Assembly (NCBI GenBank): GCA_944392105.1
Contig: CALXVM010000003.1
Span: 40,735-104,734 of the forward strand
From: an uncultured Clostridia bacterium
GTDB taxonomy: Bacteria; Bacillota; Clostridia; TANB77; CAG-508
Direction of reading: 5' to 3'
DNA length: 64,000 nt
Shown: piece by piece, positions 38,197-52,874 of the stretch
Numbering within the stretch: position 1 is the stretch's first letter
Layout: every line of letters starts with the position of its first letter
Notes under the pieces: generated by a model
Database searches by the model: none
Told to the model about the DNA's origin: nothing
The model's input: the letters and a program-made list of their open reading frames with translations, nothing else
Position numbers and translations under genes: made by a program

Positions 38197-38670
38197 ATGA
38201 ATAAAAAAATGATATTAGCCGTTATTATTTTTATTTTACTTATAATCTTGACGTTTGCGTTATTATTTTTGTTTAAAAGTCATTATATTAATAATTCGGG
38301 AAAAAAATTTGGAAATATGAGCAATGGGTCTGTAAATCATAGTACAAACGAAATTGTAAATACTAGAAAAATAATTATAGAACACTATGATTTATCACAA
38401 CACAAGATTTTAAAATCTATTGAAATACTAAATAAAGATAAAATAAATACTTTAACTAATATGATACAAGATTATGAAACCACACCAGAACATATAAAAT
38501 TACATGTTAATGGGAAATATGTTGTAAAGATGCCAGAAAATGTAATAATTTCATTTGATAATTTAGATGACACATATGTAAAATACGAAAATAGCTCGTT
38601 TAGTGATATCGTTTCTATTTCTCCTGAGTTTAAACCAATAGTTGCAGATTTACTAAATATAATTTATTAG
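38197..38670 (+). CDS. hypothetical membrane-anchored protein
   Basis: AGGAGG RBS, an N-terminal TM, and a 157-aa N/I/K-rich ectodomain. No family recognised. Confidence 0.5.
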   Translation: MNKKMILAVIIFILLIILTFALLFLFKSHYINNSGKKFGNMSNGSVNHSTNEIVNTRKIIIEHYDLSQHKILKSIEILNKDKINTLTNMIQDYETTPEHIKLHVNGKYVVKMPENVIISFDNLDDTYVKYENSSFSDIVSISPEFKPIVADLLNIIY

Positions 38671-38862
38671 CATTTTTTCTTAATTTAATAGATTTGCTTT
38701 TGATTATAATCCTTTTGTTTTTCTAATGTATACTACTCTATTACAATTTCATTTAAAGTTCTATGTTTCGTTCAAGTTACAAAAAGTTACATTTTTTTAT
38801 CTTTACAAGTTTAATTTCTTTGATATAATTTTTTTATAATAAATTTGAAAGGTGGGATACAT

Positions 38863-40107
38863 ATGTTAAAACTCAAGTATAACAAATTGATTACTACTTT
38901 GTTTATTCTTATTATTTTATTTGCTTTTTTTATTCCTAATGTAGCTTTAGCTAATCATGCATTTTCATGTGGTGGAGATTATGCTAATTTTTCAACATGG
39001 GATGATGCTATAACAGCTGCTAATTATTATGCTACAATGGGATACAGCTCATTTTATAGTACTGATCCTAGTTATTCTACTCTTAATGGTAATTTCAGTG
39101 ATGGTTGGAGAAGATTGCATAGTGATATATTATTTTTCTCTTCTCATGGAAATTCAAACGGAGTATATTTTCCAGATTCTTCTCTTGTAGTTTCAAATGG
39201 AAATTCTAGCAGTGTATATACTAAAAATGTTAATTGGGATTATGTACGATTAGTTGTTTTCGGAGGTTGTGAAACAGCTGCTGGTACATATAATATTACA
39301 AATGATACTCATGATAGAAAAGTAGAAGTTTCTATAGGTTGGCAACGAACTATAGGAAATGTTTCTCATTCTCAGTGGTTAGATCGCTTTAATTCTAAAA
39401 TAAATAGCGGTGCTACAGTTGGTGAAGCAGTAGACTATGCACATAGTTTTACCTATAACGACCCAAATGTAAAAAGAATTGTTAGAAGAGGTTCTGAAAA
39501 TTTAAGATTAAGACTTACTAGAGCCTTTAGTGTTGATGAATTTTCATCTAATTCAAATTCTAAATTTGGAAATAATTTAAAACCTTTAGAGAAATTAAAC
39601 ACAATAAATTTAAATAATAAGAAGATATTGTTTAATAGTAACAATGATATAGACAATATTATAAATGTTATAAAAGAAAACAATCCTTCTTTCAATAAAA
39701 ATGATTATAAAATAGATGTTATAGAAACTTCTTATGATAATGATTTTACAATAGACATTTATCTATTAGGAAGTAACAATAGCATAACAAATTATGGATA
39801 TACTGTAAATGTTTCTGACAATATAGTAACAAGTATTGTAGATAATACTTATGATATTAATCAAGTTAATGTTTTAAATTCTAATAGCAATGTAACAAAT
39901 GAAATTGAAAACTTAGCAAAGTCTGAAGGATTAGATAATTTAAAAAATAACTTAAAACCTGAATATCAAGATAAATGTAAAATATTAGACCAAAATACAA
40001 GTATTCATCAAGATTTAAAAAATAATTCAACATATATAGTTGTATTAACTCATTATACATTAGATGGAGAAAGTTCTGCTGTAGATGAGTATTTATATTA
40101 TTTATAA
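38863..40107 (+). CDS. secreted protein with possible His-Cys (caspase/clostripain-like) protease core
   Basis: ATG 38863 behind AAAGGTGGG. The signal peptide ends in VALA-NHA. FFSSHGNSNG and VVFGGCETAAG lie about 40 aa apart, an arrangement like the HG...C dyad of clan CD peptidases. The C-terminal half is N-rich. Confidence 0.45.
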   Translation: MLKLKYNKLITTLFILIILFAFFIPNVALANHAFSCGGDYANFSTWDDAITAANYYATMGYSSFYSTDPSYSTLNGNFSDGWRRLHSDILFFSSHGNSNGVYFPDSSLVVSNGNSSSVYTKNVNWDYVRLVVFGGCETAAGTYNITNDTHDRKVEVSIGWQRTIGNVSHSQWLDRFNSKINSGATVGEAVDYAHSFTYNDPNVKRIVRRGSENLRLRLTRAFSVDEFSSNSNSKFGNNLKPLEKLNTINLNNKKILFNSNNDIDNIINVIKENNPSFNKNDYKIDVIETSYDNDFTIDIYLLGSNNSITNYGYTVNVSDNIVTSIVDNTYDINQVNVLNSNSNVTNEIENLAKSEGLDNLKNNLKPEYQDKCKILDQNTSIHQDLKNNSTYIVVLTHYTLDGESSAVDEYLYYL

Positions 40108-40164
40108 TAAATTCAATCAAAAAAACACCAAACGGTGTTTTTTTGATTTGTATATGATTATCTC

Positions 40165-40909
40165 TTAATCATATAAGTTCTTATTTTCTATCTTTAATAT
40201 AACCGTATTTATTACAGTTTTTATATTCGGTTTTTGTATCTCATAATTGTTAAAATATTCTTTTATTGTATTTTCTTCGCAATTATAATACATAGCTTCT
40301 GTTGCTCGAATTACACTACTTTTAACGCTTCCTATTTTTATTATATTTTTTTGCAATTATGGGATATATATCTTTATTCATATTTACTATTACGTTAGAA
40401 TATTCTGTATAAACAATATATATAATGTCTTCTAAATATTGTGTTCCTTTATGCGAAAAATTATATCTTAAATAATGCAATTCACTTTGAATATTTAATT
40501 TTAATTTATTTTTCTTTTCAAAATAATTTTTTTCCAAAATTATTTTATCTATAGCGTTACATAATTCATATATTTCTGTCTGCTGTGATAATATAGTATA
40601 AATCATTTCATTTATTATATATTTTTTTTCAGCATAATCATTATATTTTAATTTTATTATAAGACTTTTTTTGTATTTTCGTCTTTTTTTTGGCATAATT
40701 TTATCTAAGTTTAAGGCAATATTGCGCAATGGCATTTTTAAATTTAATAATATTATGTCAATTTTTTCATCATTATTTAAAGTTCTTATAGCATCATTAA
40801 TGTCTGTTGATAGCTTAATTACTCTTATATCTTCCGAAATTCGATTTATCTGTGTCATTATTTCATTAGCTTCATAAATATTATCATCTATAATAAATAC
40901 ATTTACCAT
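40165..40909 (-). pseudogene. Spo0A-like regulator (degenerate receiver + Spo0A C-terminal domain) split by a frameshift
   Basis: ORF 40322..40909 ends ...HKGTQYLEDIIYIV...DIYPIIAKKYNKNRKR*. ORF 40165..40356 continues in another frame with ...SVKSSVIRATEAMYY...KPNIKTVINTV. Together they reproduce the Spo0A_C pattern. The frames switch in an A-rich run around 40322..40356. The receiver phospho-acceptor position reads LLNLKMP (Asn instead of Asp). Confidence 0.65.
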
Positions 40910-41586
40910 TTTTATTACCTCTATATTATTAGAGTTAAAAATGATTATAAACGTTTCAAAATTTAATAAATATATGTAAATATTTTATATTTATGAGACT
41001 TATATTCTATCTTTTTAATCTATCAAATCACTAATTTACCTTTGCAAAAAGTTTAGCATGTCCCCAAAAACTACTACTTATAAAAAGTTTTTTATAGAAT
41101 TTTTCTTTTGTTCATCTAATTCATTGTCGTTATAAATCATCCATTAATACTTTATAAGCAGTTTTTTCTTTCATTGCGTTGCTTATAAATCTACTAATTA
41201 ATAAAATACTTACGGTCATAATATCTATTAACAATATCATAAATTTAGTTTTTTAGATATTTTCCTCTTTTTTAGATTTTCAAAAAATAATAAAATATTT
41301 TTATATTTTGGTATATTCTATTTCAAGTATTATTAAAGTAAAATATATTCACAAAAGGTTTAAAAAATTTAACACTTTCACAACTGGCTTGTTTCTAATT
41401 ATCAAATAACTCTTTTACTTATTTATGTTATGATAATAATTATCAATTTGTATTTTGAGTTTTTGTGTTAGTTCATTTGTTAAATCTTCAGAATCTTTCA
41501 TTTGTAAATATTTTTCTATAACATCTTTGGGAAAAATACTATAATCACTATAGGACTCTATATCTTCAGTATTTATACTATTTGAG

Positions 41587-51728: not shown

Positions 51729-51920
51729 GTGCTCTTATTTCTATATAAAAAAATAAACTTATATACTTTATTGTATTACAAAGTATAAAGTTTATCTTTT
51801 CTAAAAAATCTTTGGTTCAATTATAACTCCAATCATAAAAAATATTTTTATGATTATATAAAAAGGAACTTGCAAAATCCCACGAAATTTGTCGAATTTT
51901 ACCAAGATATGTATTTTTTT

Positions 51921-52397
51921 CTATTCTTTTGTATTATTATCTGAATTACTTTTATTTTCTATTAATTCATTATATTTTTCTAACCCTTTAACTAAAAAGT
52001 TTGGTATTTTTATTCCTATATCTATTAAATTTTCTAAAATGCTCCTTGCTTCATTTATTATTAAACATGCTAATGTAAACCATCCAAAAAACATTATAAA
52101 ATCTATATTTAGGTTAATTTTCTGTCCAATCTGAGTAAGTAAATAAGAAATTAAAAAAGTTAAACATATTAAAATCCAATAGGAAACTTTTTTTATTATT
52201 CCTATCAATCCTTTACTTGAGCTTTCGGTGCTATTTACTTTGGCTTTTATAACTCCTGTTACATAATCAAGAATATTTAATATTAAGTAGCCAGCAAACA
52301 ACAGCCATTCTATTCCAAACGTAACATTTAAATAGGTTATTATAGCACTTATTATATTTCCTATTCTATTAAATATTTTAAAAAATTCTTCTTTCAT
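51921..52397 (-). CDS. holin, toxin-secretion/phage-lysis (TcdE / phage_holin_4_1-like) family
   Basis: Start MKEEFFKIF. Three hydrophobic segments. It has the ILDYVTGVIKA...SSKGLIGIIKKV motif typical of this holin family and a charged C-terminal tail. Confidence 0.7.
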   Translation of the reverse strand: MKEEFFKIFNRIGNIISAIITYLNVTFGIEWLLFAGYLILNILDYVTGVIKAKVNSTESSSKGLIGIIKKVSYWILICLTFLISYLLTQIGQKINLNIDFIMFFGWFTLACLIINEARSILENLIDIGIKIPNFLVKGLEKYNELIENKSNSDNNTKE

Positions 52398-52410
52398 TTC
52401 TATCACATCC

Positions 52411-52445
52411 TAGAAATATTATAATAATTAATTATAATATTTCTA
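52411..52445. promoter_or_regulatory. 35-bp palindrome (14-bp perfect arms) overlapping TATAAT boxes just upstream of the holin gene
   Basis: TAGAAATATTATAA-TAATTAA-TTATAATATTTCTA. The arms are at 52411..52424 and 52432..52445. It is a candidate operator or promoter. Confidence 0.4.
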
Positions 52446-52562
52446 AAAAAATAGATTTTTATTGTCTTTTATAGAAATATTTGTTTAACCCTTGAATTTT
52501 TTAATAGAATAAAATGGCGTATTATTCCTCTTTTAAAGAACTAAAAGAGAAGAAGTGCAGTA

Positions 52563-52874
52563 TCACTGCACTTCTTCTAAGACGGTATTTCGCCTAATCA
52601 ACTCATATTTTAGGTTGATAAGGTATTCCAATGCCTGCTTTTTCTCGGTTCGCCCAAGGCTCAGTCCTTTTAGAATATTTCTAAAACGCTGTCTCTCGCT
52701 AAAAAGTAACGGACTACGTGGAATGCTGTATGCGATAAATTCTTGAATTTTATCTGTCTCCTTTTCTCCGATAGTTTCCATTGGGGTGATAAGCTTTTCC
52801 GCTCTTGCTATTGACCGTAAGAGCATGTTTCTCTGTTTCTCGAACTCTGCATTAGTTTGGTCAATAATACCCAT
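52563..52874 (-). CDS. orphan 103-aa protein, GC-richer than its surroundings
   Basis: ATG 52874. R/E/K-rich and probably helical. Its stop is embedded in a perfect 14-bp-stem hairpin at 52548..52578. No family recognised. Confidence 0.5.
   Translation of the reverse strand: MGIIDQTNAEFEKQRNMLLRSIARAEKLITPMETIGEKETDKIQEFIAYSIPRSPLLFSERQRFRNILKGLSLGRTEKKQALEYLINLKYELIRRNTVLEEVQ

Follow-up and report, generated by a model that had tools for sequence, protein, structure and literature searches.

The window analysed here is a stretch of 64,000 nucleotides from an uncultured Clostridia bacterium, and all coordinates given below are positions in this window. The region followed up, positions 38197-52874 (14.7 kb), lies in low-GC DNA (around 21-35% per kb in the window) and is flanked by housekeeping genes, on one side a pair encoding an extracytoplasmic function (ECF) sigma factor and its anti-sigma factor (36925-37988), and on the other side leuS (53086-55497). 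A holin, a sigma-like regulator, two murein hydrolases, and three proteins with a Spo0A_C domain had been listed in an initial annotation of the region, and all of them were recovered using Pfam, NCBIfam, and PHROG models. The main subject of this text is the 8.28-kb cassette at 44261-52538, which extends from the gene of a 239-residue regulator to that of the holin and encodes a 782-residue protein here called the effector. The cassette is present in some strains of the species and absent in others, and it probably specifies a bacteriolysin of the Bac41 type. Bac41 is a bacteriolysin of Enterococcus faecalis encoded on plasmid pYI14 by bacL1, bacL2, bacA, and bacI.

The extent of the cassette was determined by BLASTN comparison of the window with conspecific contigs. 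In two of these (L007 and L013) the homology ends at 44260 and restarts at 52539, giving the cassette sharp borders, and 44261-52538 is replaced by 795 unrelated bp that encode a 133-aa membrane-anchored open reading frame (ORF) and a 57-aa ORF. The cassette is found at the identical site in 10 further conspecific contigs. The approximately 6 kb at 38197-44229 are kept in all 20 of the 20 conspecific contigs that reach them. The interval is thus not one island of about 14.5 kb, as the initial annotation had it, but a strain-variable 8.3-kb cassette beside a conserved left part. Conservation of the interval as core synteny, which had been named as an observation that would speak against an island, was found for 38197-44229 and not for 44261-52538. 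The region had also been described as decayed. This fits some of the regulators and duplicated genes, but not the genes for the effector, the holin, the lysin, the 121-aa Spo0A_C protein, and a 124-aa membrane protein, all of which remain unbroken, with 99-100% identity, wherever a cassette-bearing contig extends over them. The gene for a 178-aa protein is split in one conspecific contig, and that of the 239-aa regulator in another.

The 795-bp allele is a replacement, and clean excision of the cassette was ruled out as the origin of this 'empty' allele. Direct repeats were sought at the cassette borders and none were found, nor was any integrase for the cassette, and its turnover therefore probably takes place by recombination in the flanks. 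A tRNA scan gave no tRNA gene, and consequently no tRNA integration site. No relevant Rfam family was detected in the whole window at the gathering threshold or in 52400-53150, and PADLOC matched no defence family. Pfam and PHROG scans of the ORFs of 83-782 aa revealed no integrase, terminase, portal/capsid, tail, or replication families. With housekeeping flanks on both sides and 795 bp in place of the cassette in some strains, the original view that this is not a prophage holds. Exact-sequence look-ups in public metagenome assemblies found the ECF sigma factor in 697 data blocks and the GH25-LysM protein of the cassette in 685, so the host species is widely sampled.

The effector gene (48748-51096, minus strand) encodes PG_binding_1 repeats, an Rv2525c_GlyHyd-like domain, and a C-terminal PF27189 'YkzU' domain (Pfam). 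Residues 3-519 are 34% identical to BacA of E. faecalis (BLASTP, E 8e-86), and the protein matches PHROG 15213 across nearly its full length. When 8,000 candidates were scored, 876 relatives were found at E <= 0.001, many of them of equal length and with a PF27189 C-terminus. The family has a conserved N-terminal part of 490 aa, followed by C-termini of at least six BLAST groups that are unrelated to each other, and it is thus modular in the manner of polymorphic toxins. The C-terminus of BacA is Ybfg_C (PF21015), while that of the effector is PF27189. In the effector homologue of locus L103 a CHAP domain takes the place of the Rv2525c-like domain. Hydropathy scans showed that the N-terminus of the effector is not hydrophobic, and the same was found for the lysin and the 178-aa protein described below, as expected from the initial annotation in which signal peptides were said to be lacking from these proteins.

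An AlphaFold2 model of effector residues 490-782 (predicted local distance difference test, pLDDT, 92.4) consists of alpha-helices plus one beta-hairpin. Among 16 aligned relatives, H591, D615, D622, D667, D671, D673, and R701 are invariant. TelC, described as largely helical, has one hairpin and binds Ca2+ at an Asp-rich motif, and it cleaves lipid II (PMC5555719). Its toxicity is limited to action from outside the cell, and TipC neutralises it (PMC5555719), an event placed outside the cytoplasmic membrane in the paper on the Lipocone proteins (PMC12419801). A hallmark of the TelC family is an Asp located six residues past the active-site Asp and paired with an Arg in a C-terminal helix, and a conserved His is also listed among the defining residues (PMC12419801). 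In the effector, D673 is found six residues past D667, together with H591 and the C-terminal R701, which agrees with these published residues. From the invariant His, Asp, Asp+6, and Arg, and from a helical, one-hairpin plan resembling the description of TelC, we infer that the C-terminus may be a TelC-like lipid-carrier phosphatase. When PDB sequences were searched with a profile of the effector family, only its peptidoglycan-binding and Rv2525c parts gave matches, and a BFVD fold search with the C-terminus gave no viral match.

The holin gene (51921-52406, minus strand) encodes a TcdE-family protein with three predicted transmembrane (TM) segments (Phage_holin_4_1, E 2e-28). The protein passes the TIGR01593 model 'toxin secretion/phage lysis holin' (holin_tox_secr) with 61.8 bits against a cut-off of 40.2, belongs to a PHROG lysis family, and is 31% identical (E 6e-8) to the holin encoded inside the E. 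faecalis Bac41 locus. It is the putative exporter of the signal-less cassette proteins.

Between the holin and the effector lies the gene for the sigma-like regulator (51201-51686, minus strand; 161 aa, or 158 aa from the ATG at 51677). It matches Sigma70_r4_2 (E 1.7e-7), Pfam gave no match to region 2, and the score for TIGR02937 was 28 bits against a cut-off of 42.9. The initial annotation had likened it to TcdR and UviA, which as a family have regions 2 and 4. This assignment is not upheld, as region 4 alone is detectable and the similarity to a UviA-type sigma factor is confined to that region (E 0.015). Neither BLASTP nor the NCBIfam model NF041508 revealed any relation to BacL2, and the DUF5697 proteins found at the equivalent position in L003 are unrelated to it. 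The gene is found directly upstream of the effector gene also in L001, L101, and L040, and the protein is proposed to be the activator of the cassette. An inverted repeat upstream of the gene, CACCTCAT...ATGAGGTG (51690-51730, minus strand), pairs its ribosome-binding site with an upstream segment and may provide translational or attenuation control. A scan for consensus promoters found 137 in comparison with 134.5 expected from shuffled sequences, and is uninformative in DNA this rich in AT.

The second wall-directed protein of the cassette (45412-46191, minus strand) is an endolysin-type GH25 muramidase with a LysM domain (Glyco_hydro_25, E 4e-29; LysM, E 4e-11), which also matches PHROG endolysin families and is conserved in L001, L101, L102, L021, L023, and L040. 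It may be a second lytic component, or it may open the wall for export. The 178-aa protein (46417-46953, plus strand) is predicted to be a tandem SH3b-like cell-wall-binding module. Its AlphaFold2 model (pLDDT 91.5) is all-beta, and the best Foldseek matches were the SH3b-bearing NlpC1/NlpC2 (E 3e-3, probability 1.0), a marginal E-value with a consistent theme, since further matches included the phiSM101 endolysin and teichoic-acid-binding domains of S-layer proteins. A PDB sequence search with the 178-aa protein alone gave no significant match. A first word-indexed homologue search returned one cluster only, and a profile search 52 clusters from Clostridia and Bacilli. Homologues co-occur with the effector in nine loci (L001, L021, L023, L024, L026, L028, L029, L055, and L103). 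The protein may act in trans as the targeting part, a task performed in BacL1 by the SH3 repeats.

Two regulators with a Spo0A DNA-binding domain are encoded within the cassette and a third in the left part. The 121-aa protein (45054-45419, minus strand) consists of this domain alone (Spo0A_C, E 3e-11). Its gene overlaps the lysin gene by 8 nt, and the two are therefore probably co-transcribed. A Spo0A_C-only gene adjoins a lysin or holin gene in L001, L003, L023, L025, L028, L029, L040, L101, and L103. The 239-aa protein (44293-45012, plus strand) is an orphan response regulator with a receiver and a Spo0A_C domain (Response_reg, E 2e-12; Spo0A_C, E 3e-10). The receiver domain is complete and, judged by eye, has acidic residues at the usual positions. 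No kinase gene is found near it, and it could be phosphorylated by the sporulation kinases of the host. A regulator of this type is paired with a homologue of a 341-aa protein of the left part in L025, L101, L102, and L103. The third gene (40165-40909, minus strand) is a frameshifted response regulator (Spo0A_C, E 9e-6; weak Response_reg) that is read as 195 aa (40322-40909) and a 63-aa ORF; among strains its length is 250 (intact), 195, 164, or 94 aa. With the Spo0A equivalog model TIGR02875, whose cut-off is 200 bits, the scores were 58 bits for the 239-aa protein and a second value of 32 bits, so the three Spo0A-type proteins are paralogues and not the Spo0A orthologue. A canonical 0A box, TGTCGAA, is found at 51890-51896 upstream of the sigma-like gene, one of three in the 64 kb; the window shows no enrichment of TGNCGAA boxes.

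Directly downstream of the effector gene lies a gene for a 124-aa protein (48322-48696, minus strand) which according to hydropathy has a TM-loop-TM layout and is the candidate immunity protein. A TM-loop-TM protein of 120-160 aa adjoins the effector in nine of the nine clostridial loci examined, directly downstream in eight and on the opposite strand in one. These proteins diverge fast and often have no detectable mutual sequence similarity. The 124-aa gene is followed by the pseudogene remnant of a second immunity-type gene (47982-48222, minus strand), a paralogue of 42014-42436 identified from direct repeats D2 and D5 (87-89% identity). An intact counterpart of this pseudogene follows the effector gene in L101, its product being 90% identical to that of 42014-42436. 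The left part contains two 140-aa TM-loop-TM genes (42014-42985, minus strand; repeats D1-D8), which appear to be extra immunity-type copies. The product of the second, 42563-42985, is 70% identical to the 124-aa protein, and 42000-42985 matches 47960-48696 at about 88% nucleotide identity. The pair is bracketed by exact 39-nt promoter-like repeats (41958-41996 and 42996-43034), and in five contigs (L010, L108-L110, and L112) it has been lost precisely between these repeats. The cassette-less contigs L007 and L013 retain both genes. This is the pattern of orphan immunity genes, and immunity is their candidate function.

Other small proteins of the region likewise have one or two TM segments according to hydropathy. 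The 171-aa protein (47304-47819, minus strand) has a single N-terminal TM segment and sub-threshold Pfam matches only, and its gene is present in all cassette-bearing strains that reach its position. An 83-aa truncated paralogue is encoded at 47018-47269 (minus strand; 65% identity over 49 aa by BLASTP); in this repeat, D3, 47054-47235 matches 47598-47779 at 71% nucleotide identity. In the left part, a 111-aa N-terminally anchored protein is encoded behind a copy of the 39-nt element (41587-41922, minus strand), and the same element precedes the 133-aa ORF of the cassette-less allele. The paralogous sets and repeated promoter-like elements reported in the initial annotation are thus real, and so are its pseudogenes, namely the truncated regulator, the dead copy downstream of the effector, and the 83-aa paralogue.

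The same set of genes recurs in other gut Clostridia. It comprises a holin, a sigma-region-4 protein, the effector, a TM-loop-TM protein, a 178-aa homologue, a GH25-LysM protein, a Spo0A_C-only protein, a receiver-Spo0A_C protein, and a 341-aa protein, and it was found in L001, L003, L021-L029, L040, and L101-L103; in L003 an M23 protein takes the place of the GH25-LysM protein. Clostridial sets usually adjoin mobile-element genes (PcfJ, ArdC-N, single-stranded DNA-binding protein (SSB), type IV secretion system (T4SS) pilin, sortase/SpaA, integrase, and ERF). In L001, L003, L101, and L102 the cassette adjoins genes for PcfJ, ArdC-N, SSB, DUF3846, T4SS pilin, sortase/SpaA pilin, and integrase. 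At the distant homologue loci of Bacillus and Actinobacteria no partner proteins of the window were found at phmmer E <= 1e-4, except a 178-aa homologue (L055) and a weak holin match (L091). Effector relatives were found by tblastn on 563 plasmids, 384 of them from Enterococcus. In IMG/VR there are 67 loci with relatives, one of which (L117) is a true prophage with terminase, portal, and DNA polymerase genes; here the effector homologue follows a Sigma70_r4/DUF1492 protein between the replication and packaging modules. Three phage records in INPHARED match the effector, none of them covering more than 60% of the query. Since effector homologues are found on plasmids, near conjugation genes, and in a prophage, the system appears to be cargo of plasmids, conjugative elements, and phages.

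Further plasmid-borne members of the BacA family were also observed. On the botulinum type G plasmid pRSJ17_1 of C. argentinense (L017, 78051-96150) a BacA-family homologue lies approximately 4 kb from genes for a UviA-type sigma factor, a BhlA/UviB holin, a bacteriocin, and a C39 peptidase, and approximately 7 kb from bont/G. E. faecalis plasmid p2 (L018) and many E. faecium plasmids encode a second BacA-family protein of about 783 aa, distinct from the product of the classical Bac41 bacA gene. The window effector aligns with this protein through residue 709, so the plasmid protein apparently has a YkzU/TelC-like C-terminus. The gene is followed by one for a 131-aa protein with a single TM segment. 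It is not mentioned in the literature consulted.

The conserved left part, 38197-44229, is built from gene families that, judged from homology, accompany BacA-type effectors in related Clostridia. The protein next to the cassette border (43144-44229, plus strand; 361 aa, or 341 aa from the ATG at 43204) is membrane-anchored through one N-terminal TM segment, and homologues are encoded directly upstream of the effector in L021 and L025. A PDB sequence search with the 361-aa protein alone gave no significant match, while a profile of the 341-aa family matched 5AOH (E 3e-4) and the paralogue of formylglycine-generating enzyme (FGE) 1Y4J (E 1.7) in a C-terminal motif, weakly indicating an FGE/C-type-lectin-like domain, in line with the FGE-like ectoprotein of the initial annotation. 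In the 420-aa protein (38845-40107, plus strand; 414 aa in metagenome gene calls), residues 12-40 form a hydrophobic stretch interpreted as a signal sequence. The initial annotation had taken it for a putative secreted Cys protease, but it gave no Pfam or PDB match; a homologue is found near the effector locus in L028. With the 341-aa protein, the regulators, and the 420-aa protein all having homologues beside effectors in other species, the initial proposal that the whole interval is functionally related is borne out. The 420-aa gene and the neighbouring Spo0A-type regulator gene (38845-40909) each have two divergent alleles, with 95% and 90% aa identity, in strains whose adjacent genes are 100% identical, which suggests recombination or diversifying selection. 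The leftmost gene (38197-38670, plus strand) encodes a 157-aa N-terminally anchored protein that is 100% conserved in conspecific contigs.

An ECF sigma factor closely related to that of the window holds the sigma position in L102 (6258-7857; 41% identical) and in L068 (2658-3197). In these two other species the homologue is encoded a little upstream of a BacA-like effector. The system may therefore include the ECF sigma/anti-sigma pair as a functional part, with its left border possibly further left than 38197. A further strain-variable segment is found at 34577-35438; its 224-aa ORF (34608-35282) is missing from L012-L014 and has a length of 193 or 158 aa in other contigs. At the right end, just upstream of leuS, a 103-aa ORF (52563-52874, minus strand) had been counted as a member of the island. 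It lies outside the variable segment and is conserved with and without the cassette, and it is missing from metagenome gene calls. The sequence is richer in GC than its surroundings, ends in a strong terminator with a 14-bp stem (52548-52578), and folds as RNA far better than shuffled sequences (z = -5.6). It matches no Rfam family and might represent either a small gene or a structured RNA. T-box leaders are common in front of aminoacyl-tRNA synthetase genes of Firmicutes. None was detected upstream of leuS (52875-53085) at the Rfam gathering threshold or at E <= 1. In the conspecific contig L110 (240-3089) LeuS is called as a 949-aa protein with an added NUDIX domain match, which is either a fusion or an artefact of assembly or gene calling.

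Taken together, 44261-52538 is likely to be a mobile, strain-variable cassette for a holin-released, Bac41-type bacteriolysin or toxin-immunity system. In such a system the region-4-only sigma-like protein and the two Spo0A-type regulators would switch the cassette on, possibly with stationary phase or the decision to sporulate. The three signal-less, wall-directed proteins (effector, GH25-LysM lysin, and SH3b-like protein) would build up in the cytoplasm until the TcdE-family holin releases them, with or without lysis of the producer. Outside, the peptidoglycan-binding repeats, LysM, and SH3b modules would bind the wall of a rival, the GH25 and Rv2525c-like domains would cut its glycan strands, and the TelC-like C-terminal domain would cleave lipid II at the outer face of the membrane. 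The TM-loop-TM protein encoded directly after the effector would protect the producer. The polymorphism of the cassette, together with the candidate immunity genes kept by cassette-less strains, would then be a signature of ongoing strain-level warfare. The TelC-like domain gives this branch of the BacA family a concrete hypothesis, cleavage of lipid II, and the holin that is common to the Enterococcus and clostridial loci is the obvious candidate for the exit route of the signal-less proteins.

Several observations weigh against this interpretation. The C-terminal profiles of the effector and BacA are unrelated according to hhalign (probability 0.05%). The best PDB fold match of the effector C-terminal model, TelC 5UKH, is below significance (E 0.14, TM-score 0.30), and this domain has no sequence-level PDB match. 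The lysin, the regulator, and the immunity candidate of the window show no homology to BacL1, BacL2, and BacI, and appear as their analogues by position and type only. In 6 of 10 conspecific places the sigma-like gene encodes a shortened product of 122-125 aa, which means either that the regulator is dispensable or that many strains are silent. The apparent link to Spo0A consists of domain identity and a single TGTCGAA box, and is anecdotal, a lead only.

Three other explanations have been considered. The cassette might be a lysis or wall-remodelling module of a conjugative element, serving to open the wall in mating pairs or to release DNA, and the window copy would be a stranded remnant of an integrative and conjugative element. 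The conjugation and mobile-element genes next to the cassette in L001, L003, L101, and L102 are what such a module would predict, but no relaxase, coupling protein, or VirB4 was found in or beside the cassette of the window, which occupies one fixed chromosomal site in all cassette-bearing contigs seen. The variable C-terminus of the effector is of the toxin type and has a rapidly evolving membrane protein as its partner, and effector homologues are also found on small non-conjugative plasmids and in a prophage, as expected of cargo. We regard this explanation as improbable. A sporulation-linked autolysis or 'cannibalism' module, in which Spo0A-type regulators would turn on the lysins and the holin in part of the population so that siblings or mother cells rather than other strains are lysed, has about the same small chance of being correct. 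The three Spo0A_C regulators of the region, the co-conservation of this family with the cassette across loci, and the 0A box upstream of the sigma-like gene would suit it. So would the immunity-like gene beside the toxin, the arrangement seen in the Sdp and Skf systems of B. subtilis. However, the regulators score as paralogues, far short of the Spo0A equivalog cut-off, and the presence/absence polymorphism and retained orphan immunity genes fit inter-strain warfare better. Finally, a remnant holin-endolysin lysis cassette of a decayed prophage, with no present function, is very improbable: the holin and GH25-LysM protein do match PHROG lysis families and the effector PHROG 15213, relatives are present in the 67 IMG/VR loci including the one true prophage, and some genes of the region are broken, but approximately 12 clostridial loci share the gene set with no phage structural, packaging, replication, or integration gene, the INPHARED matches are few and partial, the core genes are intact and nearly identical across cassette-bearing strains, and the non-phage Spo0A_C, SH3b-like, and 2-TM proteins are co-conserved.

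The co-conserved Spo0A-type regulators suggest that mobile toxin systems are linked to the sporulation circuitry, a link of which no description was found in a literature search. In its most far-reaching form the proposal would be of a mobile, polymorphic wall toxin system of gut Clostridia wired through its own Spo0A-type regulators. Holin release of a lipid II-cleaving bacteriolysin would here be coupled to the decision to sporulate. The result would be a clostridial equivalent of Bacillus cannibalism, disseminated by conjugative elements, plasmids, and phages. This is speculative, and at present we would consider it rather unlikely. The element-encoded Spo0A_C protein might also tamper with the sporulation of the host.

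The initial annotation knew of no described system with this combination of genes. This claim does not stand, as Bac41 has been studied experimentally and the domain architecture of the effector has been catalogued; the more general proposal of holin-dependent export of a bacteriocin or hydrolase has gained from the comparison, since BacA is homologous to the effector and a holin of the cassette's family is encoded in the Bac41 locus. The secreted effectors of Bac41 are BacL1 and BacA; BacL2 regulates the system positively, BacI confers immunity, and the enzymatic function of BacA has been reported as unknown (bioRxiv 10.1101/2020.11.20.391417). Diversity of effector-immunity subtypes in Bac41 has also been reported in the literature. 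The Bac41 locus of E. faecalis plasmid NZ_CP124936 is annotated with a peptidoglycan amidohydrolase of 595 aa, bacL2, a protein of the phage holin family, proteins of 175 aa and of 726 aa, the latter with a glycoside hydrolase domain, and a 4-TM protein. The two systems share an effector with PG_binding_1 and Rv2525c-like domains (34% identity over approximately 520 aa), a holin of the same family encoded inside the locus, a second hydrolase of endolysin type, a dedicated regulator, a membrane protein encoded directly after the effector, and carriage on mobile DNA; in the window neither hydrolase nor effector has a signal peptide. They differ in that BacA ends in Ybfg_C and the window effector in a YkzU/TelC-like domain. 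BacL1 consists of GH24, Amidase_5, and three SH3_5 domains, while the window lysin is GH25 with LysM and has no BLASTP similarity to it, the SH3b-like module being a separate 178-aa protein. The regulator of the window is a sigma-region-4 protein that does not match the BacL2 model, its immunity candidate has two TM segments where that of Bac41 has four and is not homologous, and Spo0A-type regulators are absent from Bac41.

The combination of a peptidoglycan-binding domain, an Rv2525c-like TIM barrel, and a prok-TelC domain has been catalogued computationally among predicted conflict systems (PMC12419801). The proteins of that study have the identical three-module architecture and are predicted to attack both the wall and the lipid-linked precursors of rivals (PMC12419801). 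The operon partners described there, in Actinomycetota, are duo-Ig, 3TM-CCDN, and VanY, and Phage_holin_4_1 is recorded in a single locus of the supplement and is undiscussed (PMC12419801). The clostridial partner set of holin, sigma-like, GH25-LysM, SH3b-like, Spo0A_C, and 2-TM proteins is not described there. The likeness to TelC/TipC of Streptococcus intermedius lies in the toxin domain, predicted to be helical and to contain one beta-hairpin together with an Asp-rich motif. TelC, a lipid II phosphatase whose immunity protein TipC acts at the cell surface, is, however, exported by a type VII secretion system (T7SS), while the window effector has no LXG domain and no T7SS, and would presumably leave through the holin. 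The immunity candidate is unrelated to TipC, and the folds match only weakly.

UviA/UviB-Bcn5 of Clostridium perfringens and the pathogenicity locus (PaLoc) of C. difficile (TcdR, TcdE, and an endolysin remnant) resemble the cassette in that a dedicated sigma-type regulator is combined with a holin, an endolysin, and a large cargo without a signal peptide. As in PaLoc-type or type 10-like export, a TcdE-family holin is linked in the window both to a peptidoglycan hydrolase and to signal-less cargo. The cargo itself is unrelated to Bcn5 or to the large clostridial toxins, and UviB is a holin of the BhlA type while that of the window is of the TcdE type. Clostridia lack a Tat (twin-arginine translocation) pathway, and the review of holin-mediated export that states this mentions neither Bac41 nor Enterococcus (PMC9527704). 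What appears to be new in the cassette is thus its Spo0A-type regulators, an SH3b-like module on a protein of its own, and the conserved link to a holin, while the rest would make it a clostridial variant of the Bac41/BacA-family bacteriolysins with a TelC-like tip.

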